This document shows positions 283 through 24,092 of a DNA stretch of 29,037 nucleotides, one piece after another; the first letter of the stretch is position 1, and every line of letters begins with the position of its first letter. The translations under genes were made by a program, and so were the position numbers. The notes under the pieces are model-generated. The model ran no database searches and had not been told where the DNA came from. It worked only from the letters and a program-made list of their open reading frames with translations. The DNA is from a virus (Duplodnaviria > Heunggongvirae > Uroviricota > Caudoviricetes), in the IMG/VR virus record IMGVR_UViG_3300045988_046105, positions 1 through 29,037 of that record; one strand, 5' to 3'.

Positions 283-283
283 A

Positions 284-748: not shown

Positions 749-757
749 GAAGGTGTT

Positions 758-970: not shown

Positions 971-1011
971 ATACTGCCGCCAACTATGGCGGCTTTATTT
1001 TGCATGGTACT

Positions 1012-1028
1012 ATTACCACAACGGTAAC
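1012..1028. promoter_or_regulatory. operator-like palindrome ATTACC-ACAAC-GGTAAC (site S0) within an 11-bp direct repeat ACTATTACCAC x2 (1009-1019, 1027-1037)
   Basis: Read directly; matches the ATTACC-N5-GGTAAT motif found at five other sites. Lies 17 bp upstream of the terminase small subunit ATG. Confidence 0.35.
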
Positions 1029-1044
1029 TATTACCACGGTGGTT

Positions 1045-1641
1045 ATGATGCCTGCTGAACCTAAAACCTATAAACGCAAATCAACGCAATTTAAGCCACT
1101 AACAGCAATGCAGGAGGCTTATTGCCAGTCATACATCAAAACGCCTGAAAACCAGACTCAGGCAGCGATTAATGCAGGATTCTCCCCAAATACAGCGGCA
1201 GTTAAAGCCAGTGTCATGATGCGCGATGAACGCATTCAAAAACGGATTGCCGAGTTGATGGAGGAGCGCAACAAACGAATGCGCGTCAGTGCTGATTACG
1301 TTCTCATGCGCCTGGTGGAGATCGACCAGATGGACGTGATCGACATCCTCAACGACGATGGGAGCCTTAAGCCAATCCGCGAGTGGCCGAAAATCTGGCG
1401 CACTACGCTTAGCGGCTTTGATCTGTCATCGACCATCATGAACATGAACGAGGATTCGATAGAGACAATCCTCAAAAAAATTAAATGGCCTGACAAGGTG
1501 AAGAACCTCGAACTGATTGGTAAGCACGTCGACGTCAACGCATTCAAAGAACGCCTGGATGTTAATGTGAATGTGACAATTGCTGATCGCATAGCAGCAG
1601 CCAGGAAGCGACTCAAAGAACGTCAGGATGGTAATCAGTGA
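1045..1641 (+). CDS. terminase small subunit
   Basis: ORF 967..1641 (TTG start); a more plausible start is the ATG-ATG pair at 1045. Sequence ...AAINAGFSPNTAAVKASVMMRDERIQKRIAEL... is typical of phage small terminase families (recollection). Stop overlaps the large-subunit start. Confidence 0.7.
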   Translation: MMPAEPKTYKRKSTQFKPLTAMQEAYCQSYIKTPENQTQAAINAGFSPNTAAVKASVMMRDERIQKRIAELMEERNKRMRVSADYVLMRLVEIDQMDVIDILNDDGSLKPIREWPKIWRTTLSGFDLSSTIMNMNEDSIETILKKIKWPDKVKNLELIGKHVDVNAFKERLDVNVNVTIADRIAAARKRLKERQDGNQ

Positions 1642-3113
1642 CAGATACAGTGTTATCTCCTGAAGAGCAGTTGATCGAGGATATTGCAGGGTTCACTCAC
1701 GATCCGCTTGGCTATGCCCTCTATGCGTTCCCGTGGGGGGAAGAGGGGACTGAACTGGCACATGCTACCGGTCCACGTCAGTGGCAGGCCGATGCGTTCC
1801 GAGAGATACGTGATCACCTGCAGAATCCAGAGACGCGTTATCAGCCGCTTATGCTGGCACGTGCTTCTGGTCACGGTATTGGTAAATCCGCATTCATCTC
1901 AATGCTCATCAACTGGGGCATGTCCACTTGCGAGGATTGTAAGGTCGTGGTGACCGCCAACACCGACAACCAGCTACGAACGAAGACCTGGCCGGAAATT
2001 ATCAAGTGGTCGAACCTTGCTATCACGAAAGACTGGTTTACCTGTACCGCTACCGCGATGTACAGCAATGACCCTGGGCACGACAAGCGGTGGCGGGCTG
2101 ATGCAATACCCTGGTCTGAGCACAACACTGAGGCATTCGCCGGACTACACAACGAGCGCAAACGCATCATCGTGGTATTCGATGAAGCGTCGAACATTGC
2201 GGATCTGGTGTGGGAAGTTGCTGAGGGTGCGCTTACGGACGAAGACACTGAGATTATCTGGGTGGCGTTCGGAAACCCTACACGTAATACCGGGCGTTTT
2301 CGCGAATGTTTCCGCAAATACAAACACCGCTGGAAAACTGCGCAGATTGACAGCCGGACGGTGGAAGGTACTAACAAACAGCAGTTGCAGAAATGGGTTG
2401 ATGACTACGGGGAAGACAGCGACTTCGTTAAAATCCGTGTGCGCGGCATATTCCCTGATGCATCTGAATTGCAGTTTATCCCTACCGGTCTTACTGATGA
2501 GGCCATGAAACGGGTGGTAACCGCTGCGCAGGTTGCACATGCTCCGGTGATAATCGGCGTTGACCCGGCATACTCCGGAGTTGATGACGCTGTGATATAC
2601 CTGCGGCAGGGGCTACACAGTAAGGTGCTGTGGACTGGCAACAAGACTACCGACGATCTGATTATGGCGAAGCGTATCGCTGACTTTGAAGACCAGTATC
2701 AGGCTGACGCGGTGTTCATCGACTTCGGTTACGGAACCGGTTTGAAGTCAATCGGTGACGGCTGGGGGCGTACATGGCAACTTGTTCCGTTCGGTGGCGC
2801 GTCTACTGACCCGCAGATGCTCAACAAGCGTGGGGAGATGTTCAATTCATGCAAGACATGGCTGAGGCTTGGCGGCATGCTGGATGACCAGGAAACAGCA
2901 GACGACCTGTCGGCGGCAGAGTACAAAGTTCGAGTGGACGGTAAAATCGTTATCGAACCGAAGGAAGATATCAAGGAGCGGCTTGGGCGTTCGCCTGGTA
3001 AAGGCGATGCGCTACTGCTGACGTTTGCTTTCCCGGTGTCAAAGCGCCTGCGAATTCCCGGGCAGCAGAACCAGCAAGGCAAGGCCATTACAGATTACGA
3101 TCCCTATGCTTAA
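1638..3113 (+). CDS. terminase large subunit
   Basis: 491 aa; Walker A-like GHGIGKS, acidic ...VVFDEAS..., position and size. GTG start overlapping the upstream stop (GTGA). Confidence 0.9.
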   Translation: MTDTVLSPEEQLIEDIAGFTHDPLGYALYAFPWGEEGTELAHATGPRQWQADAFREIRDHLQNPETRYQPLMLARASGHGIGKSAFISMLINWGMSTCEDCKVVVTANTDNQLRTKTWPEIIKWSNLAITKDWFTCTATAMYSNDPGHDKRWRADAIPWSEHNTEAFAGLHNERKRIIVVFDEASNIADLVWEVAEGALTDEDTEIIWVAFGNPTRNTGRFRECFRKYKHRWKTAQIDSRTVEGTNKQQLQKWVDDYGEDSDFVKIRVRGIFPDASELQFIPTGLTDEAMKRVVTAAQVAHAPVIIGVDPAYSGVDDAVIYLRQGLHSKVLWTGNKTTDDLIMAKRIADFEDQYQADAVFIDFGYGTGLKSIGDGWGRTWQLVPFGGASTDPQMLNKRGEMFNSCKTWLRLGGMLDDQETADDLSAAEYKVRVDGKIVIEPKEDIKERLGRSPGKGDALLLTFAFPVSKRLRIPGQQNQQGKAITDYDPYA

Positions 3114-3159
3114 TCCGTTAGCGGGGATAATGACGGAGATATCCTCTGGTGAGGATAAA

Positions 3160-3190
3160 ACAAAGCCAGCTCATCGGCTGGCTGTTTGTG
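3160..3190. terminator. bidirectional intrinsic terminator between convergent terminase and accessory gene
   Basis: Hairpin AGCCAGC-TCATCG-GCTGGCT (3164-3183), A-tract upstream and GTTTGT downstream on + strand. Confidence 0.5.
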
Positions 3191-3199
3191 ACATGTCAC
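3188..3199. repeat. exact palindrome GTGACATGTCAC, copy 2 (14-mer TGTGACATGTCACG)
   Basis: Read directly; 4 bp downstream of the stop of minus-strand gene 3204..3575. Confidence 0.9.
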
Positions 3200-3203
3200 G
3201 GTG

Positions 3204-3575
3204 TTATTGCTCGCTTAACTTCTGCTTCAGCAAGTAACCTTCAAGCATCCAGATTTTGTTTACAGCATTCTGCCGGGCAATCTTCCGACCAATTCCCGCA
3301 TCAAAGTTTTCCGGGCTTGCACAGGCGCTCTCTCCGGTGACGGTGAAGCCGTTGCGCAGCACCAGAACGCAGAACGTCAGCAGAGAAAGTGATTCGTGCG
3401 GCTGGTAGTTTACCTCTCCGCCAGTATGTTTCGCTTTTATGGCTACGCCAAAGACACCATCTTCTGCTGTGAAATATGCCTCCTGAGCAATAATGCTCTC
3501 GATATGGTCTGGCGTAACGCGCGGCGCGGCTAAACCTTTAGCCTGAATTTCAGATTCAATGTCTTTGTCACTCAT
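3204..3575 (-). CDS. conserved small phage protein of unknown function (123 aa); family not confidently identified
   Basis: Strong SD AAGGTGAG 8 nt before ATG; motif ...LLTFCVLVLRNGFTVTGESACASPENFDAGIGRKIARQNAVNKIWMLEGY... recalled from many enterobacterial prophage proteins. Opposite strand to all flanking virion genes. Confidence 0.65.
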   Translation of the reverse strand: MSDKDIESEIQAKGLAAPRVTPDHIESIIAQEAYFTAEDGVFGVAIKAKHTGGEVNYQPHESLSLLTFCVLVLRNGFTVTGESACASPENFDAGIGRKIARQNAVNKIWMLEGYLLKQKLSEQ

Positions 3576-3591
3576 AGTCTAATCTCACCTT

Positions 3592-3615
3592 AAAAAAATG
3601 CCCGGCGAACCGGGC
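3592..3615 (-). terminator. terminator-like hairpin plus U7 immediately upstream of the RBS of 3204..3575
   Basis: Minus strand: GCCCGG-UUCG-CCGGGC followed by AUUUUUUUAAGGUGAG; the SD begins right after the U-tract. Confidence 0.4.
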
Positions 3616-3691
3616 GAACTGGAAGCAATGAGTTATGCCTTCCGTGGCTGTACTGGTTTACAGCATGAAGTCATCGCAATGGCGTCCTGCT

Positions 3692-3735
3692 GTAAAAAGG
3701 GCGGTGATAGTCCTTCAAGGGAAACCATCACCGCC
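3692..3735 (-). terminator. hairpin downstream of tRNA-Arg (possible tRNA terminator)
   Basis: 9-bp inverted repeat GGCGGTGAT/ATCACCGCC with 18-nt loop, followed on minus strand by CUUUUUA. Confidence 0.3.
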
Positions 3736-3778
3736 AAGCACCTGGAACTTCTGGCATCACGGTCCTTAGGCGTGATTC

Positions 3779-3855
3779 TGGCGTGGCATGCAGGATTCGA
3801 ACCTGCGACCAACCGCTTAGAAGGCGGTTGCTCTGTCCAACTGAGCTAATGCCAC
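3779..3855 (-). tRNA. tRNA-Arg (anticodon UCU), 77 nt, CCA encoded
   Basis: Hand-folded reverse complement GTGGCATTAGCTCAGTTGGACAGAGCAACCGCCTTCTAAGCGGTTGGTCGCAGGTTCGAATCCTGCATGCCACGCCA: 7-bp acceptor, 4-bp D stem, 5-bp anticodon stem, loop CUUCUAA, 5-bp T stem with TTCGAAT loop. Confidence 0.9.
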
Positions 3856-4176
3856 AACGCTGAGAGCACTTAGCCTGTTAAGGCGCCACACTTTGTCGCG
3901 GCTCCATAAATGCTCTCATCGTTGTACCCTCGTCTCTTCCGAGGCGTCACACCGAATCGCCGGGATGGTGAATCCCCGTGCGCGGAATAAAACCGCTCGA
4001 CTTGCACATTCCGGCTACCTGGTTCGTTTGCCCGAGCAAGGGAGGGTGCCCCTTAAACGTATCCAGACCGCTATCGTCGCATGTGCCATACGCCGTACTG
4101 CTCAAAATAAAAGCTCACTCCACCTGTTCAATTTAACGACAAGCCAGTCAGGTTAATAACCGGAATGAACTATTTA

Positions 4177-4193
4177 CTTACCTGAAGGGTAAT
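4177..4193. promoter_or_regulatory. operator-like palindrome CTTACC-TGAAG-GGTAAT (site S6) upstream of the portal operon
   Basis: Read directly; sits in the ~420-bp non-coding region 3856-4282 about 90 bp upstream of the first structural-operon ATG. Confidence 0.4.
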
Positions 4194-4282
4194 AATTCGT
4201 GCATTAAATGTCAACTATCTACGATAAATAAATCATATGTGGTTAAATTGGTAATAATTTAATTGCGTACGGAGTCATTGAT

Positions 4283-4489
4283 ATGTGCATGGGTAGCTCA
4301 CCATCAGTGCCTGCAACACCAGAAGTTCAGGCAGCACCACAGGAGCAGGATGCCGCCGTTGTTGATGCCCGCGACGAAGAAACACGTCGCCGTCGCGCTG
4401 CTGCTGGTCGTAGTTCTACGCTGCTTACCGGTTCTCAGGGCGACACATCAACCGCTAATACCAGCGGTAAAACGCTGCTTGGTCAGTAA
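4283..4489 (+). CDS. small hypothetical protein (68 aa)
   Basis: ATG with GGAG SD; RBS context GGAGTCATTGA-ATG is duplicated almost exactly at the portal start (4491-4506). No recognisable domain. Confidence 0.45.
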   Translation: MCMGSSPSVPATPEVQAAPQEQDAAVVDARDEETRRRRAAAGRSSTLLTGSQGDTSTANTSGKTLLGQ

Positions 4490-4503
4490 CCGGAGTCATT
4501 GAA

Positions 4504-6183
4504 ATGGCGGAAACAACTAAAGAGCGATTGAACAAACAGTTCGCACAACTTGAAAGCGAGCGTCAGTCGTTCGAGCCGCACTGGCGCGAGTTGAGTGATT
4601 ACATCAACCCGCGTGGTTCCCGCTTTCTGACTTCTGAGGTCAACCGTAACGATCGACGCAATACACGCATTATTGATTCGACCGGGACTATGGCGGCGCG
4701 CACTCTCGCCAGCGGCATGATGTCAGGCATCACAAGCCCCGCCCGTCCGTGGTTTCGCCTGGCTACGCCAGATCCTGAAATGATGGATTATGGCCCTGTT
4801 AAGTTGTGGCTTGAGGCGGTGCAGAACCGCATGAACGATATGTTCAATAAGTCGAATCTCTACCAGTCTCTTCCGCAGTTATACGGAAGCCTCGGCACAT
4901 ACAGCACTGGTGCAATGGCGGTGCTGGAGGATGACGAGGACATCATTCGCACAATGCCATTCCCTATAGGCAGTTACTACCTGGCTAACTCACCTCGTGG
5001 CAGTGTGGACACCTGTTTCCGCAAGTTCTCTATGACTGTTCGTCAGCTTGTTCAGGAGTTCGGGCTAAATAACGTCAGCGAATCCGTAAAAAGCATGTGG
5101 GAAAGCGGCACCTACGAGAAGTGGATTGAAGTGATGCATTCGGTTTACCCGAACATTGACCGCGATACATCGAAGCTGGATAGCAAGAACAAGCCATTCA
5201 AATCGGTTTATTACGAGGTTGGTGGCGATAACGACAAGTTGTTGCGTGAGTCCGGATTCGATGAGTTTCCAATTATGGCTCCGCGCTGGGAAGTTAACGG
5301 CGAAGATGTTTATGGATCATCATGCCCGGGTATGCTGGCGCTTGGACCTGTTAAGGCATTGCAGCTTCTCCAGAAGCGCAAGTCGCAGTTGATTGATAAA
5401 GCCACCAATCCGCCGATGGTTGCTCCGACTTCCCTCAAGAATCAGCGCGCCTCCCTTCTTCCTGGCGACATCACGTATATCGATCAGATTACTGGTCAGG
5501 ATGGCTTCAGGCCTGCTTATCTGGTTAACCCCAGTACAGCAGATTTGGTGGCAGACATTCAGGACACCCGTCAAATCATTAACAGCGCCTACTTTGTCGA
5601 TCTGTTCATGATGTTGCAGAACATCAATACCCGCTCGATGCCTGTTGAAGCGGTAATCGAAATGAAAGAAGAAAAACTTCTGATGTTGGGGCCGGTTCTG
5701 GAGCGTCTGAACGACGAATGTCTTAATCCTCTCATTGACCGCGCTTTCTCGATGATGGTGCGTAAAAACATGCTGCCGCCACCGCCTGACGCGATGGAAG
5801 GCATGCCCCTGAAGGTCGAATACATTTCCGTCATGGCTCAGGCGCAGAAGTCTATCGGCCTGTCCAGTCTGGCGTCCACGGTTAACTTCATTGGTCAACT
5901 TGCGCAAGCGAAACCAGAAGCTCTCGACAAACTCAACGTTGATCAGGCGATCGATGCATTCGCTGATATGTCCGGAGTGTCTCCAACCGTCATTGTTCCG
6001 CAGGAACAGGTTGAGCAGGCTCGCCAGCAACGGGCACAGCAGCAACAGCAGCAACAAATGATGGCGATGGGGATGGCGGCGGCACAGGGTGTCAAGACGC
6101 TAAGTGAAGCTAAAACTTCGGATCCGAGTGTGTTGTCAGCTATGGCGAATGCAGTTAGTGGTCAGGGTGGGCAATCACAATGA
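4504..6183 (+). CDS. portal (head-to-tail connector) protein, T7 gp8-like
   Basis: 559 aa; overall pattern and Q/M-rich C-terminus (QQQQQQQMMAMGMAAAQG) resemble T7 gp8 as recalled; position after terminase. Confidence 0.85.
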   Translation: MAETTKERLNKQFAQLESERQSFEPHWRELSDYINPRGSRFLTSEVNRNDRRNTRIIDSTGTMAARTLASGMMSGITSPARPWFRLATPDPEMMDYGPVKLWLEAVQNRMNDMFNKSNLYQSLPQLYGSLGTYSTGAMAVLEDDEDIIRTMPFPIGSYYLANSPRGSVDTCFRKFSMTVRQLVQEFGLNNVSESVKSMWESGTYEKWIEVMHSVYPNIDRDTSKLDSKNKPFKSVYYEVGGDNDKLLRESGFDEFPIMAPRWEVNGEDVYGSSCPGMLALGPVKALQLLQKRKSQLIDKATNPPMVAPTSLKNQRASLLPGDITYIDQITGQDGFRPAYLVNPSTADLVADIQDTRQIINSAYFVDLFMMLQNINTRSMPVEAVIEMKEEKLLMLGPVLERLNDECLNPLIDRAFSMMVRKNMLPPPPDAMEGMPLKVEYISVMAQAQKSIGLSSLASTVNFIGQLAQAKPEALDKLNVDQAIDAFADMSGVSPTVIVPQEQVEQARQQRAQQQQQQQMMAMGMAAAQGVKTLSEAKTSDPSVLSAMANAVSGQGGQSQ

Positions 6184-6476
6184 CAGATTACGAAGACGAT
6201 CAACTGAAAGAAGAAAACGCCCGTAAGCAACGTGACATGGCACAGCGTGAAATTGATGACATTCGCTTTGTCATGAGCAGTGAACAGGGGCGTCGCGTTG
6301 TCTGGTCGGTGCTGGAGAAAGGCCGTGTGTTTTCCGCTATCTCTCCGATGGATGCTATGGCAATGGCATTTAATGAGGGGCAACGCAATCTGGCGCTGGA
6401 ACTGTTTCAGCGCGTTATGGCGCATTGCCCTGAACAGTATTTGAAGATGGCCAAAGAGGCCAGTGAACAGGAGTGA
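6180..6476 (+). CDS. hypothetical virion-module protein (98 aa)
   Basis: ATG overlaps portal stop (ATGA); acidic small protein; no family recognised. Confidence 0.5.
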   Translation: MTDYEDDQLKEENARKQRDMAQREIDDIRFVMSSEQGRRVVWSVLEKGRVFSAISPMDAMAMAFNEGQRNLALELFQRVMAHCPEQYLKMAKEASEQE

Positions 6477-6478
6477 TC

Positions 6479-7174
6479 ATGAATTTATTTGAGCGTTTGC
6501 TGTATCGCCGTCTTTGCAATGAGCAACCAGTCGATGGTGGAGCAGCTCCGGCTGCGTCAGAACCGTCAGCGCCTGCAGGTGATAACCCTGCTCCAGTTGG
6601 TGATCCATCACAACAGGAAGGTGATAAGCCACAACCTGTTGCTGATGGCGATAAACCTGCTGATGACAAAAAGCCTGAAAACGATAAGCAGGATGAAAAA
6701 AAGGACGGCGATAAACCAGAGGGTGCGCCTGAGAAGTACGAGTTTCAGGCTGCCGAAGGCGTAGAGCTGGATACAGAAGCGTTGAAGGAATTCGAGCCGG
6801 TGGCGCGAGAACTAAACCTGACCAACGAGCAAGCGCAAAAGCTGGTTGATGCTTATCCGAAGATTCTGGCAGGTGTGCAGCAGCGCCAGGCAGAAGCCTG
6901 GCAGAAAACAACCGAGCAGTGGGCTGCTGATGTAAAAGCTGACAAAGAAATCGGTGGCGACAAGTTGATTTCTAACCTTAGCGCCGCACAGCGTGCGCTT
7001 GACCAGTTCGGGACACCTGAGCTCAAAGAATATCTGAACACCACCGGACTGGGTAATCACCCTGATCTGGTCAAAACGTTCGTGAAAATCGGAAAGGCGA
7101 TGTCTGAGGATGGCATGGTCACCGGTGGTAATGAAGGCCAGCGTAGTGCGGCCGAAGTGCTCTATGGCAAATAA
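6479..7174 (+). CDS. scaffolding protein (predicted)
   Basis: ATG 6479 with AGGAG SD (track start 6473 is GTG). Acidic low-complexity N-half (DGDKPADDKKPENDKQDEKKDGDKPE) and helical C-half; sits between portal and major capsid. Confidence 0.65.
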   Translation: MNLFERLLYRRLCNEQPVDGGAAPAASEPSAPAGDNPAPVGDPSQQEGDKPQPVADGDKPADDKKPENDKQDEKKDGDKPEGAPEKYEFQAAEGVELDTEALKEFEPVARELNLTNEQAQKLVDAYPKILAGVQQRQAEAWQKTTEQWAADVKADKEIGGDKLISNLSAAQRALDQFGTPELKEYLNTTGLGNHPDLVKTFVKIGKAMSEDGMVTGGNEGQRSAAEVLYGK

Positions 7175-7188
7175 GAGAGGAAATAACA

Positions 7189-8175: not shown

Positions 8176-8226
8176 CGCCTGTTATTAACCTGTGGGTCGT
8201 AACAGACCCACTAATGGAGAAAGAAG

Positions 8227-8664
8227 ATGATCACCGACAAACTGTTGATGTTCTCCGAAGCACAGGCGGTAATTGATACCGCGGCTTCTACTGACGTAAT
8301 CGATCTCGGTCCAATTGACGGAAAACGTCGTGATATCGGCGTTGGTTACCCGCTTGAGTTTTGGGCGCTGGTTAACACAGCCGCCGCGGCAAGCGGTGAT
8401 GCAACTGTAAACATCCAGTTGCAGACGAGTGAGAATAACAGCTCATGGACCACTATTTATGATAGTGGCGCACTGGCAAAGACCGCCCTGACAGCAGGTA
8501 AACGAGTTGTTTCTGCAAAGGTGCCTGCCGGTGTTCAGCGATATCTGCGTGTTAACTACTCCGTCGCAACTGGCCCACTAACGGCTGGCGAATTCACTGC
8601 TGGTATCAGTCTTGATGTTGATGCCAATACGCCGTATCCGATCCGCTCAAAAGTAACTGGTTAA
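8227..8664 (+). CDS. capsid decoration / structural protein (predicted)
   Basis: 145 aa, beta-rich, SD GGAGAAAG, immediately downstream of major capsid gene. Confidence 0.45.
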   Translation: MITDKLLMFSEAQAVIDTAASTDVIDLGPIDGKRRDIGVGYPLEFWALVNTAAAASGDATVNIQLQTSENNSSWTTIYDSGALAKTALTAGKRVVSAKVPAGVQRYLRVNYSVATGPLTAGEFTAGISLDVDANTPYPIRSKVTG

Positions 8665-8674
8665 GGTGATATCG

Positions 8675-9010: not shown

Positions 9011-9026
9011 GCCTCGCGGATCAGAC

Positions 9027-9048
9027 AAGGGGCTTCGGCCCCTTTATT
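9027..9048 (+). terminator. intrinsic terminator after capsid gene block
   Basis: AAGGGGC-TTCG-GCCCCTT followed by TTATT. Confidence 0.6.
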
Positions 9049-9054
9049 GCAGGA

Positions 9055-13463: not shown

Positions 13464-13475
13464 GGGGATAATAAG

Positions 13476-17788: not shown

Positions 17789-17793
17789 ATTAA

Positions 17794-20268
17794 ATGAGAC
17801 AGGAATGTATACAAGCGGTTCAGCAGGCGGCGCAGCGCATGTTAACGGCGCGAGAAATACAGAACATTGAAGACCGCATTTATCGAAATATGCGCTCCAT
17901 TGCTCGTGATGACCCTATGTCGTGGCGACAACTTTCCGAATCAGAGCGGCTATATCGAGCAGCACAATTGGCATCTGAAGAATTACAGCGAGAAGCGGCA
18001 TTAAAGAAACGTCGTGTGGCTCTCACTATAGCCGCGCGTCAGAGATTGGATAAATTTATCAATAGCTATCAAGGGGCTGATGGGAAACTTGGCGCTCTTA
18101 ACCGTACTATAGCTTTTAATGCAGACGGTAAATCTAATTTCCTCTCTGTTGAATCCAGAACAAAAGCCACCCGTGATTATGCATTGAGTCAATTGCAGGA
18201 GGCATTCGAAGCAGTTGATCCTCGCTTTTTTGGTCTGTTTGAAGATGAAGCGGGCGTACGTGACCTGGTATATGAAATGCGGGGGCAAAATACTGGCAAT
18301 GCTAAAGCAAGAAACGGTGCTAAGGCGTGGAGAGAAGTTACAGAGCTGCTGCGCCGCCGGTTTAATGATGCTGGTGGGGACATTGGCTATCTCGAAAACT
18401 GGGGGATCCCTCAACATCATTCTATGGAAAAGGTTGGGGCAGTATCAAAGGATAAGTGGGTTAGCGATGTTATAGGTAAGCTGGATCGCAAATATTATAT
18501 CCGAGCCGATGGACAACTGATGAACGATGCCGAGTTGTCTTCATTTCTTGGAGAGGCTTATAACACGATCGCTACTGGTGGGCTGAATAAGCTTACTGAT
18601 ACCGGAATGCGAATTTCCGGCGCACGTGCTAACCGTGGTAATGCATCACGACAGATACATTTCAAAGATGCAGATTCCTATCTGCAATATCAGCAACTTT
18701 ATGGCGATCGCTCTCTATGGGAAATCATGGTCGGTCACCTGGAAGGTATCAGTAAAGATATTGCACTGGTGGAAACATATGGCCCAAACCCCGATCATGT
18801 TTTCCGCTCTCTTCTTGATCAGGTGAAGGCAGAAACGGCAACAGCTAACCCGAGTAAAACCGGTAAAGTCGAGCGGCTGGCGAACAACACAGAGAATCTG
18901 TACAACTTTATTTCCGGAAAGACACAGCCTGTAGCGAATCCGCACATCGCGCGATGGTCTGACAATATCCGCAACTGGCTGGTTGCCAGCAGACTCGGAT
19001 CCGCGTTGCTGTCATCGTTCTCTGATCTTGGAACCATGTATCTGTCTGCGAAGGTTACCAACCTTCCAATGAACCAGTTATTCCGCAACCAGCTTGAAGC
19101 TATGGACCCAACGAACCGTACAGAACTTGCGCGGGCTCGCCGCGCTGGTCTGGCGATGGAATCTCTACTTGGCAGCGTTAACCGCTGGGCGATGGATAAT
19201 ATGGGGCCGTCAGTGTCTCGTTGGGCGGCAACGGCGGTAATGCGTGCCAGTGGGCTTACAGCATGGTCAGATGCGCACAAGCGCGCCTATGGCGTAACCA
19301 TGATGGGAAGCCTGGGAGAAGTAGTGTCACGGACACCAGACCTTCGTAGCCTCGATGACTCTGATTTTCGTATCCTGAAAAGCAAAGGGATTACTGACAC
19401 AGACTGGAGCGTATGGAAGCTGGCGAAACAGGAGGACTGGGGGAACGGTAATAATACGATGCTGACACCGGAAAGCATTATGCGTATCCCTGATTCAGCA
19501 GTTAAACATCTTGGTGAGCCTGAACGCGTGAAATTTGAGGCAATGCGTAAACTGCTCGGTGCCGTAACTGAAGAAGTTGATATGGCTGTTATTACACCGG
19601 GAGCACGTGAGCAACTGATAACCGGTTCTGGTATTCAGCGTGGAACATGGAAAGGTGAATTAACGAGAAGTGTTTTCCTGTTTAAATCGTTCCCTATCTC
19701 GGTTGTTATGCGTCACTGGTCACGCGCTATGGGTATGCCGTCTGCTGGTGGGCGTGCGGCATATATTGCGACGTTTATTGCCAGTACGACCATTCTTGGC
19801 GCTTTGTCGCAGCAACTTAACGACCTTGCGTCTGGTCGTAATCCTCGAGAGATGACAGGAGAAGATGCCGCAAAATTCTGGCTTGGTGCTCTACTGAAAG
19901 GTGGTGGTCTTGGCCTTTACGGTGACTTTTTATTGTCAGATCACACTAGGTACGGAAGCGGCGCGCTGGCGTCGATGCTTGGCCCGGTAGCTGGTCTGGT
20001 TGATGACGTAGTGAAGATTGCTCAGGGCATACCGTTAAATGCTGTGGAAGGGAAGAGTGAGCAGACTGGTGGTGATCTGGTGAAGCTGGGGAAAGGTTTG
20101 ATGCCTGGTGCGAATCTCTGGTACTTGAAGGCGGCTCTCGATCACATGATCTTTAACCAGATGCAGGAGTATTTTTCACCAGGCTATTTGCGTAAAATGG
20201 AGCAACGTTCGAAGAAAGAGTTTAACCAGACATACTGGTGGCGACCACAGGATGTCACTCCGCAATAA
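17794..20268 (+). CDS. internal virion protein D-like (gp16 position)
   Basis: 824 aa, SD GAGAGG; last large gene of virion block. Confidence 0.55.
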   Translation: MRQECIQAVQQAAQRMLTAREIQNIEDRIYRNMRSIARDDPMSWRQLSESERLYRAAQLASEELQREAALKKRRVALTIAARQRLDKFINSYQGADGKLGALNRTIAFNADGKSNFLSVESRTKATRDYALSQLQEAFEAVDPRFFGLFEDEAGVRDLVYEMRGQNTGNAKARNGAKAWREVTELLRRRFNDAGGDIGYLENWGIPQHHSMEKVGAVSKDKWVSDVIGKLDRKYYIRADGQLMNDAELSSFLGEAYNTIATGGLNKLTDTGMRISGARANRGNASRQIHFKDADSYLQYQQLYGDRSLWEIMVGHLEGISKDIALVETYGPNPDHVFRSLLDQVKAETATANPSKTGKVERLANNTENLYNFISGKTQPVANPHIARWSDNIRNWLVASRLGSALLSSFSDLGTMYLSAKVTNLPMNQLFRNQLEAMDPTNRTELARARRAGLAMESLLGSVNRWAMDNMGPSVSRWAATAVMRASGLTAWSDAHKRAYGVTMMGSLGEVVSRTPDLRSLDDSDFRILKSKGITDTDWSVWKLAKQEDWGNGNNTMLTPESIMRIPDSAVKHLGEPERVKFEAMRKLLGAVTEEVDMAVITPGAREQLITGSGIQRGTWKGELTRSVFLFKSFPISVVMRHWSRAMGMPSAGGRAAYIATFIASTTILGALSQQLNDLASGRNPREMTGEDAAKFWLGALLKGGGLGLYGDFLLSDHTRYGSGALASMLGPVAGLVDDVVKIAQGIPLNAVEGKSEQTGGDLVKLGKGLMPGANLWYLKAALDHMIFNQMQEYFSPGYLRKMEQRSKKEFNQTYWWRPQDVTPQ

Positions 20269-20487
20269 AAGGAGATATGATAGTTCAAATAACTTTTATT
20301 GTACTAATATGTGCAGCGTTTTTATGCTATTCATACATTTTGATAAAAATGGGTTTCAATTGGAATCTCTGTTGCGTGCAGCGGCATGGTTCGGCTTTGT
20401 AGTATTCGGAATTGTATTGTTCGGAAGAATAATAAAATAACTAGTTAATTTGTGGATTGGTGCTGTTTTTCCATGATAGGGGTAATT

Positions 20488-20868
20488 ATGAGAAAAGTAT
20501 TTTTGATTTTTGGATTTATGCTTCTCGTTGGATGCCAGTCAGCTGCACAGTTTGAAAGAAATATGCTTACGTGGCGCGGGCAGAGTATAGACGCAATGGT
20601 TCAGCAGTGGGGGTATCCTCAGGGAGAGCTTACATCTCCAGATGGAAACAGAGTGTATGTTTACTCAAGCTCTGGTAGTTATAACGTACCACAAACCACA
20701 ACGTATAATACTACGTCTAATCTAATTGGTAATACTATATATTCAAACACATACGCAACAACTGATGGCGGTTATACACTCCATTTCAGTTGCTCTGTTT
20801 ACGTTGAGTTTGGTGCTGATAAGATTATTAAAAATGTTACATGGCGCGGTAATAATTGCGTTGCGTGA
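20488..20868 (+). CDS. lipoprotein (moron; candidate superinfection-exclusion / receptor-masking factor)
   Basis: ATG 20488 with AGGGG SD; signal peptide MRKVFLIFGFMLLVGC with lipobox LVGC; AT-rich gene unlike flanking virion genes; stop inside palindrome copy 3. Confidence 0.6.
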   Translation: MRKVFLIFGFMLLVGCQSAAQFERNMLTWRGQSIDAMVQQWGYPQGELTSPDGNRVYVYSSSGSYNVPQTTTYNTTSNLIGNTIYSNTYATTDGGYTLHFSCSVYVEFGADKIIKNVTWRGNNCVA

Positions 20869-20876
20869 CATGTCAC
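20865..20876. repeat. exact palindrome GTGACATGTCAC, copy 3 (14-mer in inverted orientation, CGTGACATGTCACA)
   Basis: Read directly; overlaps lipoprotein stop codon. Confidence 0.9.
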
Positions 20877-20901
20877 AGGCCGCTTTCGCGGCCTTGTTTT
20901 T
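20877..20901 (+). terminator. intrinsic terminator of lipoprotein gene
   Basis: AGGCCGC-TTTC-GCGGCCT followed by TGTTTTTA. Confidence 0.6.
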
Positions 20902-21061
20902 AACGAATGCCACCGCCACCCGGGCGGGAATCCGCAGAACGCCCACCGCAGCGGGAGCCGTCAGCAGCAGTGTCGCTGTCGTGCTGACAACGACCGGCAA
21001 AGGCCTGAGTTGAAGCTACCAGAGACAACAAAACGAACAGTGCAGCAAATGCTTTTTTCAT
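20900..21061 (-). CDS. small secreted Cys-containing peptide (53-aa precursor; ~31-aa mature Gly/Arg/Asp-rich peptide)
   Basis: Internal ATG 21061 gives MKKAFAALFVLLSLVASTQAFA-GRCQHDSDTAADGSRCGGRSADSRPGGGGIR: classic signal peptide with AxA site, two Cys, E. coli-like codons. SD is weak. Confidence 0.35.
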   Translation of the reverse strand: MKKAFAALFVLLSLVASTQAFAGRCQHDSDTAADGSRCGGRSADSRPGGGGIR

Positions 21062-21133
21062 TGTTAAATTTCCATCTATAAGCCACCTCAATGTGGCGTT
21101 AATGAGTGTAGCACTGACTTTTGTTTCGTCCAC

Positions 21134-21154
21134 AAAAAAGCCCGCAGCGCGGGC
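21134..21154 (-). terminator. intrinsic terminator directly after stop of 21155..21694
   Basis: Minus strand: GCCCGC-GCU-GCGGGC followed by UUUUUU. Confidence 0.6.
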
Positions 21155-21694
21155 TTACCAAAACTTGTACCACGGGGATTTATCCTTCAATGGACAATCC
21201 TTCCATCGTGTGGCCAACCATTCATATTCTTTAAAATATGTGTTTATGTTTTCTTTTTCTCTAATGGCTTGTATAAGAGGTAGCGCAATCTGATAGTTAT
21301 TTACAACGGAGCTGTAAAATACTTCCTTAATCATGGTCTCATCATAAGTTTTCCGCTTCACGCTCACAGCCATGCGTTCGTAGAAACCTAGACAGTAAAT
21401 TATTTCTCTCTTCTCTGTCTTTTCTTCATCCGTAAGATCAGCCTGCCCATTGCTTGGATACATATAAGAGCGGAATGATTTGTTCGATTCGTGAATGCGG
21501 CGCATAGTAGATAGGCCTTTCTTATAATCTACATCAAACCTGCTTTCACCAAGGAATACTGAAGTGTGTACTTTTCTCGCTGTATTTACATTATAAATAA
21601 TAGTAGCGATAGCTATGAACAAGCCAAGCGAAACCGCGACTGCACTTACGATTTGAGCCACAGCCATGGCAAATTGCATTTCTTCACTTAACAC
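21155..21694 (-). CDS. membrane-anchored protein with ~150-aa predicted cytoplasmic domain (candidate exclusion/abortive-infection factor)
   Basis: GTG 21694 with GGAGA SD 6 nt upstream (alternative ATG 21679). One long N-terminal TM helix followed by basic residues. AT-rich. No family recognised. Confidence 0.55.
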   Translation of the reverse strand: MLSEEMQFAMAVAQIVSAVAVSLGLFIAIATIIYNVNTARKVHTSVFLGESRFDVDYKKGLSTMRRIHESNKSFRSYMYPSNGQADLTDEEKTEKREIIYCLGFYERMAVSVKRKTYDETMIKEVFYSSVVNNYQIALPLIQAIREKENINTYFKEYEWLATRWKDCPLKDKSPWYKFW

Positions 21695-21711
21695 AAACTG
21701 TCTCCAGACAT

Positions 21712-21735
21712 GAAAACGGGGCCTAATGGCCCCGT
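21712..21735 (-). terminator. terminator-like hairpin (candidate attenuator) immediately upstream of RBS of 21155..21694
   Basis: Minus strand: ACGGGGCC-AUUA-GGCCCCGU then UUUCAUGU, followed 8 nt later by GGAGA and the start codon. Confidence 0.4.
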
Positions 21736-21753
21736 CATTAAACTATCCGAATG

Positions 21754-21786
21754 TTAAACGCCTTCGTACTCGTCAAATTTTCTCAT
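21754..21786 (-). CDS. candidate leader peptide MRKFDEYEGV (10 aa)
   Basis: ATG preceded by AGGAGGAG at 5-nt spacing; ends 18 nt before the attenuator-like hairpin. Could be coincidental. Confidence 0.2.
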   Translation of the reverse strand: MRKFDEYEGV

Positions 21787-21822
21787 GTGGGCTCCTCCTG
21801 TATCGGTGCCTAATCGCTATGG

Positions 21823-21839
21823 ATCACCCGTGAGGTAAT
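21823..21839. promoter_or_regulatory. operator-like palindrome ATCACC-CGTGA-GGTAAT (site S7) overlapping predicted -10/+1 of the 21155..21694 promoter
   Basis: Read directly; minus-strand promoter TGTACA-N18-TACTAT predicted by eye. Confidence 0.4.
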
Positions 21840-21870
21840 AGTAAGCTATTCACCTGCAATCTGTACAGAA

Positions 21871-21895
21871 TTATTTAAAGGCACATCCCTGTGCC
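21871..21895 (-). terminator. intrinsic terminator after Bro-N gene
   Basis: Minus strand: GGCACA-GGGA-UGUGCC followed by UUUAAAUAAUU. Confidence 0.45.
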
Positions 21896-21903
21896 GCCGC
21901 CCG

Positions 21904-22596
21904 TCAGAAGAACCCTGCTTTGTCGTTGATGTACTCCGCGTGCGTCTGGATATCACGCAGGCATTTGCTCACACCAACGATGTAGCAGAACATGGTGGTC
22001 AGCTCCGCCGCCGCGCCCGATACATCGTGCCCGTCTTCCTGTAACTGGTTCAGCAGATTCATCAGCAGTGAGTTTTCCGTCAGGCCGAGAACACCAGACG
22101 GCGAGTGAATCAGGCTGCGGTAGCCGGGCTTCAGTGGGGCGCTGTAGGTTTTGTTCTCTATCTTCATTGCCTGCATCACTGCTGATGCTGTGGCGTTGGC
22201 TACCTGGTCGGCAACCATCTTTATGCGTTCTTCCTGCGGGAGCGAGTTTTTAATGTAACTTCCGGTGCGGCGGATCTGAGGAAGAACCTCACCTGTAACC
22301 CATTCAAGAAATCTGAATGCTCTCGTTCCCTCAGTCATTGCCTCTTTGCAACGCAGAATAAGGATGTAGAGACCTGATTCTGAAACGATGGATAGTTCTT
22401 GTATTCCACCAGGGGTCTGTATTGAATACAGCCCCTTTTTGTTCCAGCCTTTTTTATCAAGTTTTCTCGCTTGTGTAACATCAATATTCAAAGCATTGCA
22501 CACATCTTTGGTGACAAACCAAGGTTCTCCGTCAATCATGAACATACGGATCTGGCAGGATGACTCAAAGGAAAAGATGGAAGGTTTGGTATTCAT
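21904..22596 (-). CDS. Bro-N domain protein with distinct ~80-aa C-terminal domain (antirepressor-like)
   Basis: ATG 22596 with AAGGTGA SD (track ORF extends to 22641 via non-ATG start). N-terminus FESSCQIRMFMIDGEPWFVTKDV...GLYILILRCKEAMTEGTRAFRFLEWVTGEVLPQIRRTG matches the Bro-N pattern (recollection); C-terminal domain is paralogous to 23743..24000. Confidence 0.75.
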   Translation of the reverse strand: MNTKPSIFSFESSCQIRMFMIDGEPWFVTKDVCNALNIDVTQARKLDKKGWNKKGLYSIQTPGGIQELSIVSESGLYILILRCKEAMTEGTRAFRFLEWVTGEVLPQIRRTGSYIKNSLPQEERIKMVADQVANATASAVMQAMKIENKTYSAPLKPGYRSLIHSPSGVLGLTENSLLMNLLNQLQEDGHDVSGAAAELTTMFCYIVGVSKCLRDIQTHAEYINDKAGFF

Positions 22597-22745
22597 GGCG
22601 ATCACCTTTGTAGTTAGGTTAATCACCACCGCTGAGACCAATCAGATGGTGGTGAACTGTGCAGAGTTGGTCTTACCGGCTACAAAGGAACCCGGCGCAC
22701 CTTTCGGTGCCCCCACACAGCCCACCATAGAATAGGTGCGCTTTA

Positions 22746-22843
22746 CACATAAAAAAACCGCTTATGCGGCATATGTGCCTCTGTAGTAATCCGGGAGACC
22801 AATCCCGGCACTGGATTTTGCCAGTGCCCGATTACTATGGCAC
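22746..22843 (-). ncRNA. structured 5' leader / candidate small RNA upstream of Bro-N gene, ending in hairpin plus U7
   Basis: Nested helices: GTGCC(22775-79)/GGCAC(22839-43) and GTAATC/GATTAC enclose two stem-loops (CCGGGA-N6-TCCCGG; GGCACTGG-N6-CCAGTGCC); then CCGC-N4-GCGG plus U7 (22751-22769). The 69-aa ORF over this region has no ATG and spans promoter elements. Confidence 0.35.
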
Positions 22844-22862
22844 AAGAGGAGTGCGATGTAAA

Positions 22863-22879
22863 TTTACCGCAAAGGTAAT
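22863..22879. promoter_or_regulatory. operator-like palindrome TTTACC-GCAAA-GGTAAT (site S1) overlapping -10/+1 of predicted Bro-N promoter
   Basis: Read directly; minus-strand promoter TTGATT-N18/19-TATCAT predicted by eye. Confidence 0.45.
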
Positions 22880-22955
22880 GATAAGCGCGGATAAATATTA
22901 AAATCAACCGTATTTGGTTGATTGCGTTTAACGCTTGATCACCTGAAAGCAAGAT

Positions 22956-22972
22956 ATTACCTTTAAGGTAAT
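22956..22972. promoter_or_regulatory. operator-like palindrome ATTACC-TTTAA-GGTAAT (site S2) just upstream of RBS of 22992..23720, plus half-site ATCACC-TGAAA at 22938-22948
   Basis: Read directly; perfect 6-5-6 dyad. Confidence 0.45.
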
Positions 22973-22991
22973 GTTATTGTGAGGAAAAGCA

Positions 22992-23720
22992 ATGGAAGTT
23001 TTCTGGATAGTTGTTGGTGTGGTTGCGGTGATTATTTACGTTATCAACCAGAACAAGACTAAGATCTCTGATCGTACGGTCGTTAATCATAACAAAACGA
23101 TAAAGACCGAAGATGGGGAGATAACGATTAATCGTACACAGGTGATAGAACACACCTCTACTCAGTTTCAAAAAACTGGAGGTAATGCGCCTAATATTTC
23201 CGCACCTCCTGCTTATGATAGTGCGGTAATCCAGACATATTATAAACAGCAGGAGTTAGCAAAAGAGAGGCAACTGATTCAGCCAAAGCCGTTTACAGCT
23301 GAGCTTCCACCTGGAGTGTCAATGCGTCCGGCATATCATGGAAGATTCCCTGGTGATGACATATCGTCTCAGTCATCTAAAAAAGCACCTCAGGCAGTAT
23401 CAGAGCCAGCAAGAATACCTTCTGTATCGCCGCCAAAAGAAGAATCAGCTAACAGAGTTTCAAGTGGTAGCAAGCAGTGCTTGCGATGCAGAATAAACCT
23501 ACCATATGAAAAATTCAGGAAATCGTCAAAAAATCCAGATGGATTGACTAAGTGGTGTGCAAGGTGTCTCGATGGCCCAAAGAATACACGCCATATGAAG
23601 TGGTGCCCAATTTGTAATGTCCGCAGAAAACGAACAAGCTTTTACCCTAATAATCAAAATGCGGATGGCTTAATGGCATGGTGCAAAACGTGCTGGGACG
23701 AGCACAAAGCGAAACGATAG
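22992..23720 (+). CDS. membrane-anchored protein with Pro-rich linker and tandem C-terminal zinc-ribbon-like repeats
   Basis: SD GAGGA 6 nt upstream; N-terminal TM helix; two repeats of C-x2-C-x17/18-(P/A)DGL-x3-WC-x2-C (CLRC...PDGLTKWCARC and CPIC...ADGLMAWCKTC). Confidence 0.6.
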   Translation: MEVFWIVVGVVAVIIYVINQNKTKISDRTVVNHNKTIKTEDGEITINRTQVIEHTSTQFQKTGGNAPNISAPPAYDSAVIQTYYKQQELAKERQLIQPKPFTAELPPGVSMRPAYHGRFPGDDISSQSSKKAPQAVSEPARIPSVSPPKEESANRVSSGSKQCLRCRINLPYEKFRKSSKNPDGLTKWCARCLDGPKNTRHMKWCPICNVRRKRTSFYPNNQNADGLMAWCKTCWDEHKAKR

Positions 23721-23744
23721 GCCGCTCTTGCGGCCTTTAAATTT
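23720..23744 (+). terminator. terminator hairpin between convergent genes
   Basis: GGCCGC-TCTT-GCGGCC followed by TTTAAATTT. Confidence 0.5.
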
Positions 23745-24000
23745 ACCGGGTTTGTTTTCGTAATTGTTCGGCACAATAGTCGAGATGTGTTTGCAGATCC
23801 CGCATAGACATCTGTGAGCTGGTGACGTAGTTAATCAGTGCAGTCAGTTCGGCAAGTGGGCCATCGACATTAAATCCATCCTTATCGAGATCCCGGAGTA
23901 ATTTCATCAAGTGCGATCCCTCCACCAGTGACCTGACGCCTCCCGGCGTGTGAATCCTTTCGGTAAATCCGTCTTCCAGTGGATAGTGATACCGCTGCAT
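23743..24000 (-). CDS. small protein (85 aa) paralogous to the C-terminal domain of the Bro-N protein; predicted SOS-inducible antirepressor-like factor
   Basis: ATG 24000 with GGAGA SD 8 nt upstream (track ORF starts further upstream at a non-ATG). Roughly 45 percent identity by eye to the Bro-N C-terminal region. LexA-box-like palindrome 22 bp upstream. Confidence 0.6.
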   Translation of the reverse strand: MQRYHYPLEDGFTERIHTPGGVRSLVEGSHLMKLLRDLDKDGFNVDGPLAELTALINYVTSSQMSMRDLQTHLDYCAEQLRKQTR

Positions 24001-24021
24001 CTTATCTTCTCCATGCAATAA

Positions 24022-24037
24022 CTGTATATTTATACAG
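24022..24037. promoter_or_regulatory. LexA (SOS) box CTGTATATTTATACAG overlapping predicted -10 of the small-gene promoter
   Basis: Matches CTGT-N8-ACAG with AT-rich spacer (consensus TACTGTATATATATACAGTA); sits on a TATAAAT -10-like element of the minus-strand promoter. Confidence 0.65.
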
Positions 24038-24075
24038 TAGCAAATAATTTGTTTGCTATCCAGCACGTTTTGCAA

Positions 24076-24092
24076 ATTACCTGAAAGGTAAT
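24076..24092. promoter_or_regulatory. operator-like palindrome ATTACC-TGAAA-GGTAAT (site S3); half-site TTTCAGGTAAT at 24132-24142
   Basis: Read directly; perfect 6-5-6 dyad between the small LexA-box gene and the tailspike gene. Confidence 0.45.

Follow-up and report, generated by a model that had tools for sequence, protein, structure and literature searches.

Dispersed 17-bp palindromes in the right arm of a phiV10-type E. coli prophage as probable operators for the repressor Rep

Judged from its sequence, the 29,037-nucleotide stretch of DNA that we analyzed (the window) belongs to an E. coli prophage of the genus Uetakevirus, where it makes up the right arm as far as attR, at guaA. The window is ~97% identical to phiV10, and >300 E. 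coli prophages are of the phiV10 type. An E. coli G5 prophage is 100% identical to the window over positions 20300-24300, and not elsewhere. The repressor gene, rep, is located in the attL-proximal arm, outside the window, which ends at attR. We observed rep, identical to phiV10 gp40 and flanked by sites of the motif described here, in phiV10, phiv142-3, and the E. coli G5 prophage. The features considered are listed below, with scores from the position weight matrix (PWM) described afterwards.

1012-1028, no strand: candidate operator, terS site 1, ATTACCacaacGGTAAC, 21.5 bits
1030-1046, no strand: candidate operator, terS site 2, weaker, ATTACCacggtGGTTAT, 11.8 bits
4177-4193, no strand: candidate operator upstream of the gp3/portal (head) operon, CTTACCtgaagGGTAAT, 21.5 bits
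4234-4256, plus strand: late-promoter-like motif, not an operator, CATATGTGGTT-N5-GGTAATA, 57 bp after the operator start
21823-21839, no strand: candidate operator between the Bro-N/Ant gene and a DUF4760 gene, ATCACCcgtgaGGTAAT, 15.4 bits
21904-22596, minus strand: second antirepressor, Bro-N plus Ant-type C-terminal domain (Pfam Bro-N; phrog_130, phrog_450)
22645-22827, minus strand: isrK sRNA (22751-22827) and C4 antisense RNA (22645-22732), from Rfam
22863-22879, no strand: candidate operator upstream of the promoter-like element of isrK-C4-Bro-N/Ant, TTTACCgcaaaGGTAAT, 20.0 bits
22956-22972, no strand: candidate operator 20 bp upstream of a 242-aa open reading frame (22992-23720), perfect, ATTACCtttaaGGTAAT, 25.9 bits
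23743-24003, minus strand: small antirepressor Ant, 86 aa, 87% identical to SPC32H Ant (phrog_450)
24022-24037, no strand: LexA box upstream of small ant, perfect, CTGTATATTTATACAG
24076-24092, no strand: candidate operator in the divergent ant/tailspike intergenic region, perfect, ATTACCtgaaaGGTAAT, 27.4 bits
24121-24143, plus strand: late-promoter-like motif ahead of the tailspike gene, beginning 45 bp from the operator start

The repeated element is a 17-bp palindrome, ATTACC-N5-GGTAAT, with an A/T-rich center. The original prediction had listed six copies, and all six are present as written (1012-1028, 4177-4193, 21823-21839, 22863-22879, 22956-22972, and 24076-24092). It had also described such matches as rare by chance. 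Consistent with this, TTACC-N5-GGTAA has five exact matches in the window, compared to 0.00 in 100 dinucleotide shuffles, and ATTACC-N5-GGTAAT with ≤2 mismatches has eight, compared to 0.89 expected. We scanned the window with a PWM derived from 69 sites from other genomes, with the window itself excluded, using a cutoff of ≥8 bits. There were exactly seven matches (0.4 in Markov controls), corresponding to the six listed sites and a seventh, at 1030-1046, that was absent from the earlier list. The match at 27267, which has two mismatches and a score of 6.3 bits, is intragenic and probably due to chance. Two proposed "half-sites," at 22938 and 24132, scored -5.6 and -7.0 bits and are not operator-like; the one at 24132 is part of a different conserved motif, the late-promoter-like motif at 24121-24143.

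All seven sites lie in the noncoding 8.4% of the window (P = 3e-8), as had been claimed for the original six. This count holds because we took the conserved ATG at 1048 as the start of terS, rather than the TTG at 967. The TTG gives the longest open reading frame and is the terS start in the phiV10 RefSeq record, where it puts two operators inside coding sequence. The motif was enriched in both comparisons, that is, relative to shuffled controls and in intergenic regions. It is most improbable that the repeats arose by chance or are nonregulatory, for example the remnant of a mobile element or a signal for packaging or recombination, given that seven sites were observed where 0 to 0.4 are expected, that in three genomes they occur only between genes, that half-sites are conserved while flanks diverge, and that positions relative to rep are fixed across six genera. 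The claim that several sites overlap predicted -10/+1 positions is not supported. Promoter-like matches in a consensus promoter scan were not above the shuffle expectation, and only two were found at the sites, both on the minus strand, one overlapping and one abutting 22863-22879.

The individual sites differ in strength and setting. Site 1012-1028 is directly downstream of the early-right terminator (976-993), 20 bp before the terS ATG; it is conserved in six genomes and is syntenic with an epsilon15 protein_bind feature annotated "repressor" (12-27). Site 1030-1046 follows 1 bp after it and is separated by 1 bp from the terS start codon, a tandem arrangement that is kept in phiV10, epsilon15, Tyrion, and phiv142-3. 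At 4177-4193, the half-sites are invariant in six genomes while the upstream flank is unalignable, and the syntenic repressor site in epsilon15 is at 2931-2947. The half-sites of 24076-24092 are likewise invariant in six genomes, and its syntenic counterpart among the epsilon15 repressor sites is at 19895-19911. Site 21823-21839, the weakest among the six originally listed, has a variant half-site, ATCACC; it is identical in the E. coli G5 prophage, and phiv142-3 has a site in an analogous place, at 6152. Site 22863-22879 abuts the -35 hexamer TTTACA (22862-22857) of a promoter-like site with a TG extension, for which the predicted start, 22827, is also the Rfam start of isrK.

Downstream of the operator at 22863, isrK and C4 (Rfam gathering-score matches of 74.7 and 78.6 bits) occupy the leader of the Bro-N/Ant gene. 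The original prediction had offered a Bro-N-type DNA binder as one possible reader of the palindrome. Bro-N domains can bind DNA, and this gene lies between two of the sites. However, a tblastn search with the Bro-N domain found no match in epsilon15, SPC32H, BUCT711, or phiv142-3, and all four have the motif: epsilon15, SPC32H, and BUCT711 have 12 to 16 sites each by PWM, and phiv142-3 has 16 matches at ≤2 mismatches. Moreover, the C terminus of the protein is an Ant-type antirepressor domain, 43% identical to small Ant. The occurrence of the motif without Bro-N in four genomes refutes this alternative, and we consider there to be almost no chance that the Bro-N protein binds the palindrome.

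The motif is instead associated with Rep (phiV10 gp40, epsilon15 gp38, and Rep of SPC32H). Kropinski et al. (2007, Virology 369:234) reportedly described binding sites for the epsilon15 repressor, gp38. The epsilon15 GenBank record (AY150271.2) has seven "protein_bind repressor" features, each of which is an ATTACC-N5-GGTAAT site, and three of the seven are syntenic with sites in the window (upstream of terS, upstream of gp3/portal, and in the ant-tailspike interval). Sites cluster around rep in every relative that we examined, with clusters resembling OL and OR on both sides of the gene in phiV10, epsilon15, SPC32H, Tyrion, BUCT711, and the E. coli G5 prophage. Six prophages from six enterobacterial genera encode a Rep with the recognition helix (N/T)LVNRW, and all have motif clusters, at -70 to -120, +635 to +790, and about -2300 to -3400 bp from the rep start, the last being a pair of sites about 62 bp apart. 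Five distant Rep homologues with a different helix had no motif clusters in the surrounding 2 to 8 kb. This co-occurrence also fits other regulators conserved in the same prophages, such as the Cro-like gp41 or a gp55-like zinc-finger protein. All residues specified in NLVNRW..G.K.IG...AR.IE are the same in Reps with only 42 to 45% overall identity.

Two further observations connect the sites to repression. For the best early promoter candidates beside rep, the 17-mer covers the start site or the -35 hexamer; in the best sigma-70-like PL of phiV10, the operator covers the start site. In addition, overexpression in the system of ZX5, a near-identical phage, of a Rep identical to that of phiV10 abolished free phage and reduced holin mRNA by 99.97% and endolysin mRNA by 99.99% (PMC9782041). 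We conclude that the seven palindromes are very probably operators for the master repressor Rep, encoded outside the window. Physical binding by a phiV10-type Rep, control of a promoter by each site, and pairing or looping are predicted from the sequence comparisons. The original prediction had proposed a CI/Cro-like helix-turn-helix (HTH) regulator encoded outside the window. Rep is an HTH repressor encoded outside the window, but it is not λ CI-like, since it lacks an S24 autocleavage domain and is XRE/Cro-type in its HTH only: Pfam searches with the phiV10 and SPC32H Reps gave only HTH_3 and HTH-like matches and no Peptidase_S24. The phiV10 Rep can be aligned with SPC32H Rep (PDB 5D50) along its entire length (E = 4e-42) and is homologous to that tetrameric, antirepressor-inactivated protein. 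The C-terminal domain has diverged between the SPC32H and phiV10 types. SPC32H Rep is described as tetrameric, as binding to palindromic DNA sites, and as being taken apart by Ant.

These comparisons suggest how the system might operate. An ATTACC half-site would be contacted by a single N-terminal HTH domain, through the (N/T)LVNRW recognition helix. Operators would tend to work in pairs, because the Rep tetramer has two DNA-binding pairs; the commonest spacing is 62 bp. In a lysogen, Rep would sit before nearly every transcription unit, so that the whole lytic program would be turned off directly rather than only through a cascade of early genes. Units under Rep would include the terminase, the head genes, the accessory antirepressor module, the 242-aa open reading frame, and ant/tailspike inside the window, and the early-left, early-right, and replication-distal genes outside it. 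The half-sites of the LexA box at 24022-24037 are conserved in six genomes, and ant of SPC32H is reportedly under LexA control (Kim and Ryu, 2013). By analogy, this box is likely the induction input of the Rep-Ant switch, and small Ant is expected to strip Rep off the operators. Following DNA damage, LexA would leave the box and Ant would be made; disassembly of the Rep tetramer by Ant would then free all operators together.

The late operons are a special case. Each genome has three copies of the late-promoter-like motif, before the head, tailspike, and lysis operons, and in every genome the operator starts 57, 45, or 48 bp upstream of it while the sequence between diverges. The late core promoter itself would retain only a GGTAAT half-site. 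The operator centers lie at roughly -79, -67, and -70, but these distances are soft, since the late start sites are only guessed from the conserved motif. On that basis, the head and tailspike operators, centered ~67 to 79 bp upstream, would not be in a classical promoter-occluding position. The genus-wide motif, CATAWRTGGTT-N5-..TAAT.., appears to be unannotated, and it is possibly read by the conserved zinc-finger regulator whose gene immediately precedes terS. As a speculation to which we give an outside chance, a tetrameric Rep anchored upstream may repress the late operons at a distance, or the site may double as an activator site; either way, the late motif would represent a new class of activator-dependent late promoter.

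In another reading, the late-operon sites (4177, 24076, and perhaps 1012/1030) would serve mainly as activator or dual-use sites rather than for simple repression, with either gp41, which is Cro-like, or the zinc-finger protein at window 402-740, which is gp55/gp49-like, as the reader, or with Rep itself acting positively from a class-I-like upstream position. The fixed distances of 57, 45, and 48 bp across divergent sequence are in keeping with such a role, as is the conserved "transcriptional regulator" (phrog_536) encoded directly upstream of terS. Cro-type proteins commonly use the operators of the repressor, as established for λ. Against this, the distances depend on guessed start sites, the 17-mer covers the start site or -35 of the best early promoter candidates beside rep, the epsilon15 late-operon sites are annotated as repressor sites, the motif tracks the Rep recognition helix, and lysis-gene mRNA is shut down by Rep overexpression (PMC9782041). 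We therefore regard a mainly activating role as improbable and favor operators for Rep at these sites also. The points of experimental interest are the silencing of late promoters by a tetrameric repressor ~70 bp upstream and the reader of the late motif.

The operator reading of the original prediction was essentially right, and the feature is already known: the operator motif, the repressor assignment, and the late-operon placement are on record for epsilon15, and the structural basis of the Rep-Ant switch has been determined in SPC32H. A practical use lies in annotation, since phiV10-type records and the >300 E. coli prophages have no operator features, and the terS start in the phiV10 RefSeq record covers two operators.

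Compared with the CI/Cro operators OL and OR of λ, the system shares 17-bp, two-fold-symmetric operators, an HTH reader, and clusters flanking the repressor gene on either side; the half-site ATCACC of λ also occurs as a variant at 21823. The proposed resemblance to the λ half-site is nonetheless superficial, with five central base pairs between ACC and GGT here and three in λ. Unlike in λ, induction here would be by an antirepressor rather than by RecA-mediated cleavage of a repressor with an S24 domain, and operators, instead of being confined to OL and OR beside the repressor gene, are dispersed over 14 to 16 intergenic positions per genome, including late operons. Sites before the terminase and portal genes, which had been called unusual, are so relative to λ but are the norm for the genus and have a precedent in C1 of phage P1. 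P1 C1 operators are dispersed over the genome, including at the immI (c4-icd-ant) operon. Both systems have many scattered operators before separate operons, including an antirepressor module with a C4 antisense RNA. However, the operator 17-mers of P1 are asymmetric and C1 is unrelated, whereas the sites here are palindromic and Rep has an XRE-type HTH, so the likeness to P1 is best viewed as a functional analogy only, with the window system outside the P1 family. Epsilon15 belongs to the same genus and has the same palindrome, likewise scattered over the genome and clustered next to the repressor gene. It differs in that gp38 is only about 42% identical to phiV10-type Rep and in that it lacks the accessory DNA carrying sites 21823, 22863, and 22956; epsilon15 and phiV10 both have a lysis-operon site, which the window does not. 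The Rep-Ant switch of SPC32H (PDB 5D50, 5D4Z; Kim and Ryu, 2013; Kim et al., 2016) lacks the additional Bro-N/Ant fusion under isrK/C4 control that is found in the window, but it has a homologous Rep, the closely similar Ant, a LexA box upstream of ant, and the same motif at the same places.

All six 17-mers listed in the original prediction as copies of the palindrome ATTACC-N5-GGTAAT (1012-1028, 4177-4193, 21823-21839, 22863-22879, 22956-22972, and 24076-24092) are present in the window, with letters exactly as quoted. The core TTACC-N5-GGTAA occurs five times, compared to 0.00 expected from 100 dinucleotide-preserving shuffles, in line with the claim that its chance rate is far below one in 29 kb. 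When up to two mismatches to ATTACC-N5-GGTAAT were allowed, we found eight matches in the window (0.89 expected). To avoid circularity, we trained a position weight matrix (PWM) without the window sites, using 69 distinct sites solely from other genomes. At a cutoff of at least 8 bits, exactly seven matches were identified in the window (0.4 in Markov controls): the six listed sites and an extra operator at 1030-1046 (ATTACCacggtGGTTAT), directly 3′ of the first site, that had been overlooked. A two-mismatch match at 27267 was not accepted as an operator; it is intragenic, scores 6.3 bits, and is probably a chance match. Two half-sites, proposed at 22938 and 24132, have negative PWM scores (-5.6 and -7.0 bits, respectively) and are therefore not operator-like, ruling them out as degenerate operators. 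The operator observation is confirmed, with one site added and the half-sites dropped.

As had been claimed, the sites are all intergenic: noncoding DNA makes up 8.4% of the window and contains 7 of 7 (P = 3e-8). phiV10, with 14 of 14 operators between genes, and epsilon15, with 15 of 16, show the same placement. For the window, the count holds only if terS begins at the ATG at 1048. This start is conserved in six genomes, and the records for epsilon15, SPC32H, Tyrion, and phiv142-3 annotate its equivalent. The phiV10 RefSeq record uses the longest-ORF start, a TTG at 967 (window 967-1048; 41-121 in comparison record L001), from which the coding sequence would extend over a rho-independent terminator (976-993) and the two terS operators. 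The ATG at 1048 is likely to be the true terS start. The early-right operon ends with the following gene, a candidate late-gene regulator:

402-740: conserved zinc-finger "transcriptional regulator" (phrog_536; phiV10 gp55, epsilon15 gp49), last early-right gene before terS

A 70-amino-acid ORF with no family match (758-970), absent from phiV10, is inserted between this gene and the terminator. It had also been suggested that several operators overlap -10/+1 positions. A sigma-70 consensus scan of the window placed no promoters at most operators, and its promoter-like matches were not enriched over shuffles; hence, we do not endorse this overlap.

The window covers the right arm of an integrated prophage belonging to Uetakevirus, the genus of epsilon15/phiV10-like podoviruses; its identity to phiv142-3, phiV10, and O157 typing phages 9 and 10 is ~97%. 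It opens with the end of the early-right operon, continues with the terminase, head, tail, accessory, and tailspike regions and the lysis cassette, and reaches the following element:

28832-28844: attachment core ATTGAGTGGGAAT (13-mer), marking attR

Beyond 28844 similarity to phiV10 ends and host DNA from downstream of guaA follows, which identifies the window as a prophage arm. Integration at guaA has been reported for the relative ZX5, in agreement with this attR (PMC9782041). Since the window ends at the guaA attR, it does not include the attL side, where the integrase, repressor, and early promoters lie. ATTGAGTGGGAAT has another exact copy inside the tail gene (10775-10787); this copy is also found in the E. 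coli G5 prophage and is absent from phiV10 and epsilon15. phiV10, phiv142-3, and G5 stood in for the complete prophage in the motif scan. Over 20300-24300, the window and the G5 prophage are 100% identical. The latter has lost everything between the end of the early-right operon and the middle of the tail gene (25177-25864 of L007, the G5 record); with the CDSs on either side of the loss flagged as partial, this prophage is probably defective. Window positions 1-4600 had no match better than ~98% among complete E. coli genomes. A tRNA-Arg(tct) gene lies at 3779-3855 (minus strand), overlapped almost entirely on the opposite strand by a phiV10p04-like ORF (3598-3849, plus strand) that is probably not a gene.

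The epsilon15 record, AY150271.2, contains seven protein_bind features labeled "repressor / lysogeny," all of which are ATTACC-N5-GGTAAT 17-mers. Three are syntenic with window operators:

12-27 in epsilon15: before terS, syntenic with window 1012-1028
2931-2947 in epsilon15: before gp3/portal, syntenic with window 4177-4193
19895-19911 in epsilon15: between gp19 and the tailspike gene, syntenic with window 24076-24092

When these three regions were aligned for six genomes (hosts Escherichia, Salmonella, Enterobacter, and Klebsiella), the half-sites were invariant and the flanks were divergent or unalignable. Complete relatives have 12 to 16 copies of the motif per genome, essentially confined to gaps between genes; sites cluster on either side of the repressor gene, and most other transcription units are preceded by one site or a pair. 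Beside rep in phiV10, the start site of the best sigma-70-like leftward promoter is covered by one operator, with another 62 bp upstream; at the rightward promoter candidate, one operator covers the -35 and spacer and another lies 48 bp upstream. A spacing of 62 bp is the commonest across genomes (11 of 29 pairs). Neither the motif strings nor Uetakevirus promoters yielded informative matches in full-text literature searches. We concluded that these operators are already known for the genus and do not represent a new feature.

Two kinds of binding protein had been proposed: an HTH repressor encoded beyond the window or a Bro-N-type protein. Using tblastn, we found no match to the Bro-N domain in epsilon15, SPC32H, BUCT711, or phiv142-3. 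All four phages carry the motif, which refutes Bro-N as the binder. The HTH repressor is supported by the prior repressor annotation of the operators and by the location of rep on the attL side. The phiV10 Rep (gp40, 194 amino acids) is a full-length homologue of SPC32H Rep (PDB 5D50; E = 4e-42) with HTH_3-type matches; no S24 autocleavage domain was found in it. Between the phiV10, Tyrion, Klebsiella, and epsilon15/SPC32H lineages, Rep identity is only 42 to 78%. An N-terminal stretch, NLVNRW..G.K.IG...AR.IE, is invariant across these four lineages, as would fit one operator common to these phages. Eleven loci emerged when Rep homologues were sought in a single genome of each bacterial species. 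All six enterobacterial prophages with a full-length Rep and an (N/T)LVNRW helix (from Superficieibacter, Erwinia, Klebsiella, two Citrobacter, and Scandinavium) have motif clusters, at ~-70 to -120, +635 to +790, and ~-2300 to -3400 bp from the rep start, the last being a pair ~62 bp apart. No motif clusters were detected within the surrounding 2 to 8 kb for the five distant N-terminal homologues with another helix (Paraburkholderia, Hydrogenovibrio, and Thiomicrospira). For SPC32H, Rep has been described as forming a tetramer, which recognizes palindromic sites and is dismantled by Ant. Kim et al. in 2016 reportedly found for SPC32H that pairs of N-terminal domains from different dimers bind DNA and that Ant is tetrameric. 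The Rep of the G5 prophage is identical to phiV10 gp40 and has operators on both sides. In the ZX5 system, overexpression of a Rep with the phiV10 gp40 sequence left no free phage and lowered holin and endolysin mRNA levels by 99.97% and 99.99%, respectively (PMC9782041). Together, these data support the seven sites as operators of an HTH repressor encoded outside the window.

The window also carries the following elements between positions 21904 and 24037:

21904-22596, minus strand: second antirepressor, with a Bro-N domain and an Ant-type C-terminal domain
22645-22827, minus strand: isrK small RNA and C4 antisense RNA in tandem (Rfam, 74.7 and 78.6 bits), leader of the Bro-N antirepressor gene
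22992-23720: 242-amino-acid ORF, phrog_6762, unknown function
23743-24003, minus strand: small Ant, 86 amino acids
24022-24037: perfect LexA box (CTGTATATTTATACAG), upstream of the small ant gene

Small Ant is 87% identical to SPC32H Ant, although the cognate Reps are only ~42% identical. The CTGT and ACAG halves of the LexA box are conserved in 6 of 6 genomes. With the small ant gene and its LexA box, the window holds the induction half of the Rep-Ant switch. A LexA box considered near 21823, in CTGTACAG...CAGG, was rejected, as it does not fit CTGT-N8-ACAG. The Ant-type domain of the second antirepressor (C-terminal 80 residues) is 43% identical to small Ant and matches phrog_450. Adjoining the operator at 22863-22879 is the -35 of a promoter-like element, and the start predicted for this element is also the isrK start. 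The best-scoring operator pair of the accessory region precedes the 242-amino-acid ORF, which is hydrophobic in an N-terminal segment and carries repeated Cys motifs at its C terminus that match endonuclease VII and Lar-like zinc-ribbon families.

A further motif, CATAWRTGGTT-N5-(G/T)G(T/C)..TAAT.., is present three times per genome in most genomes, on the sense strand, preceding the head (gp3/portal), tailspike, and lysis operons. None of the records examined annotates it. Its positions in the window are as follows:

4234-4256: CATAWRTGGTT motif
24121-24143: CATAWRTGGTT motif
26854-26880: CATAWRTGGTT motif, degenerate

The motif looks like an activator-dependent late promoter. On inspection of the sequence, a sigma-54 -24/-12 promoter was rejected, there being no TGC at -12. 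The distance from the start of the Rep operator to the motif is a constant 57, 45, or 48 bp, with the operator upstream in every genome. If the hexamer that contains TAAT is the -10, the strong operator would be centered near -79, -67, or -70, and the core promoter would contain only a GGTAAT half-site. The gp3 pseudo-site lies exactly 62 bp from the operator. This geometry is compatible with a Rep tetramer that is anchored upstream and reaches the promoter, and also with dual use of the operator in activation; both possibilities are speculative because the start sites are only assumed from the motif. A Rep operator at the lysis operon is present in phiV10, epsilon15, SPC32H, and Tyrion and absent from phiv142-3 and the window (26326-26914). 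The same region, upstream of the lysis cassette, contains a 99-amino-acid ORF (26402-26701) common to the window and phiv142-3.

The likeness to λ that had been suggested goes no further than a symmetric site of 17 bp and, occasionally, an ATCACC half-site. The window system differs from λ in spacing, repressor architecture, and induction route. Operators before the terminase and portal operons, previously described as unusual, are so relative to λ but are normal within this genus, and P1 C1 is a functional precedent. The arrangement of isrK, C4, and antirepressor with a Rep operator recalls P1 immI, which is under C1 control. Similarly, the isrK-C4-Bro-N antirepressor unit resembles the Gifsy-1 isrK-anrP module, here placed under a Rep operator.
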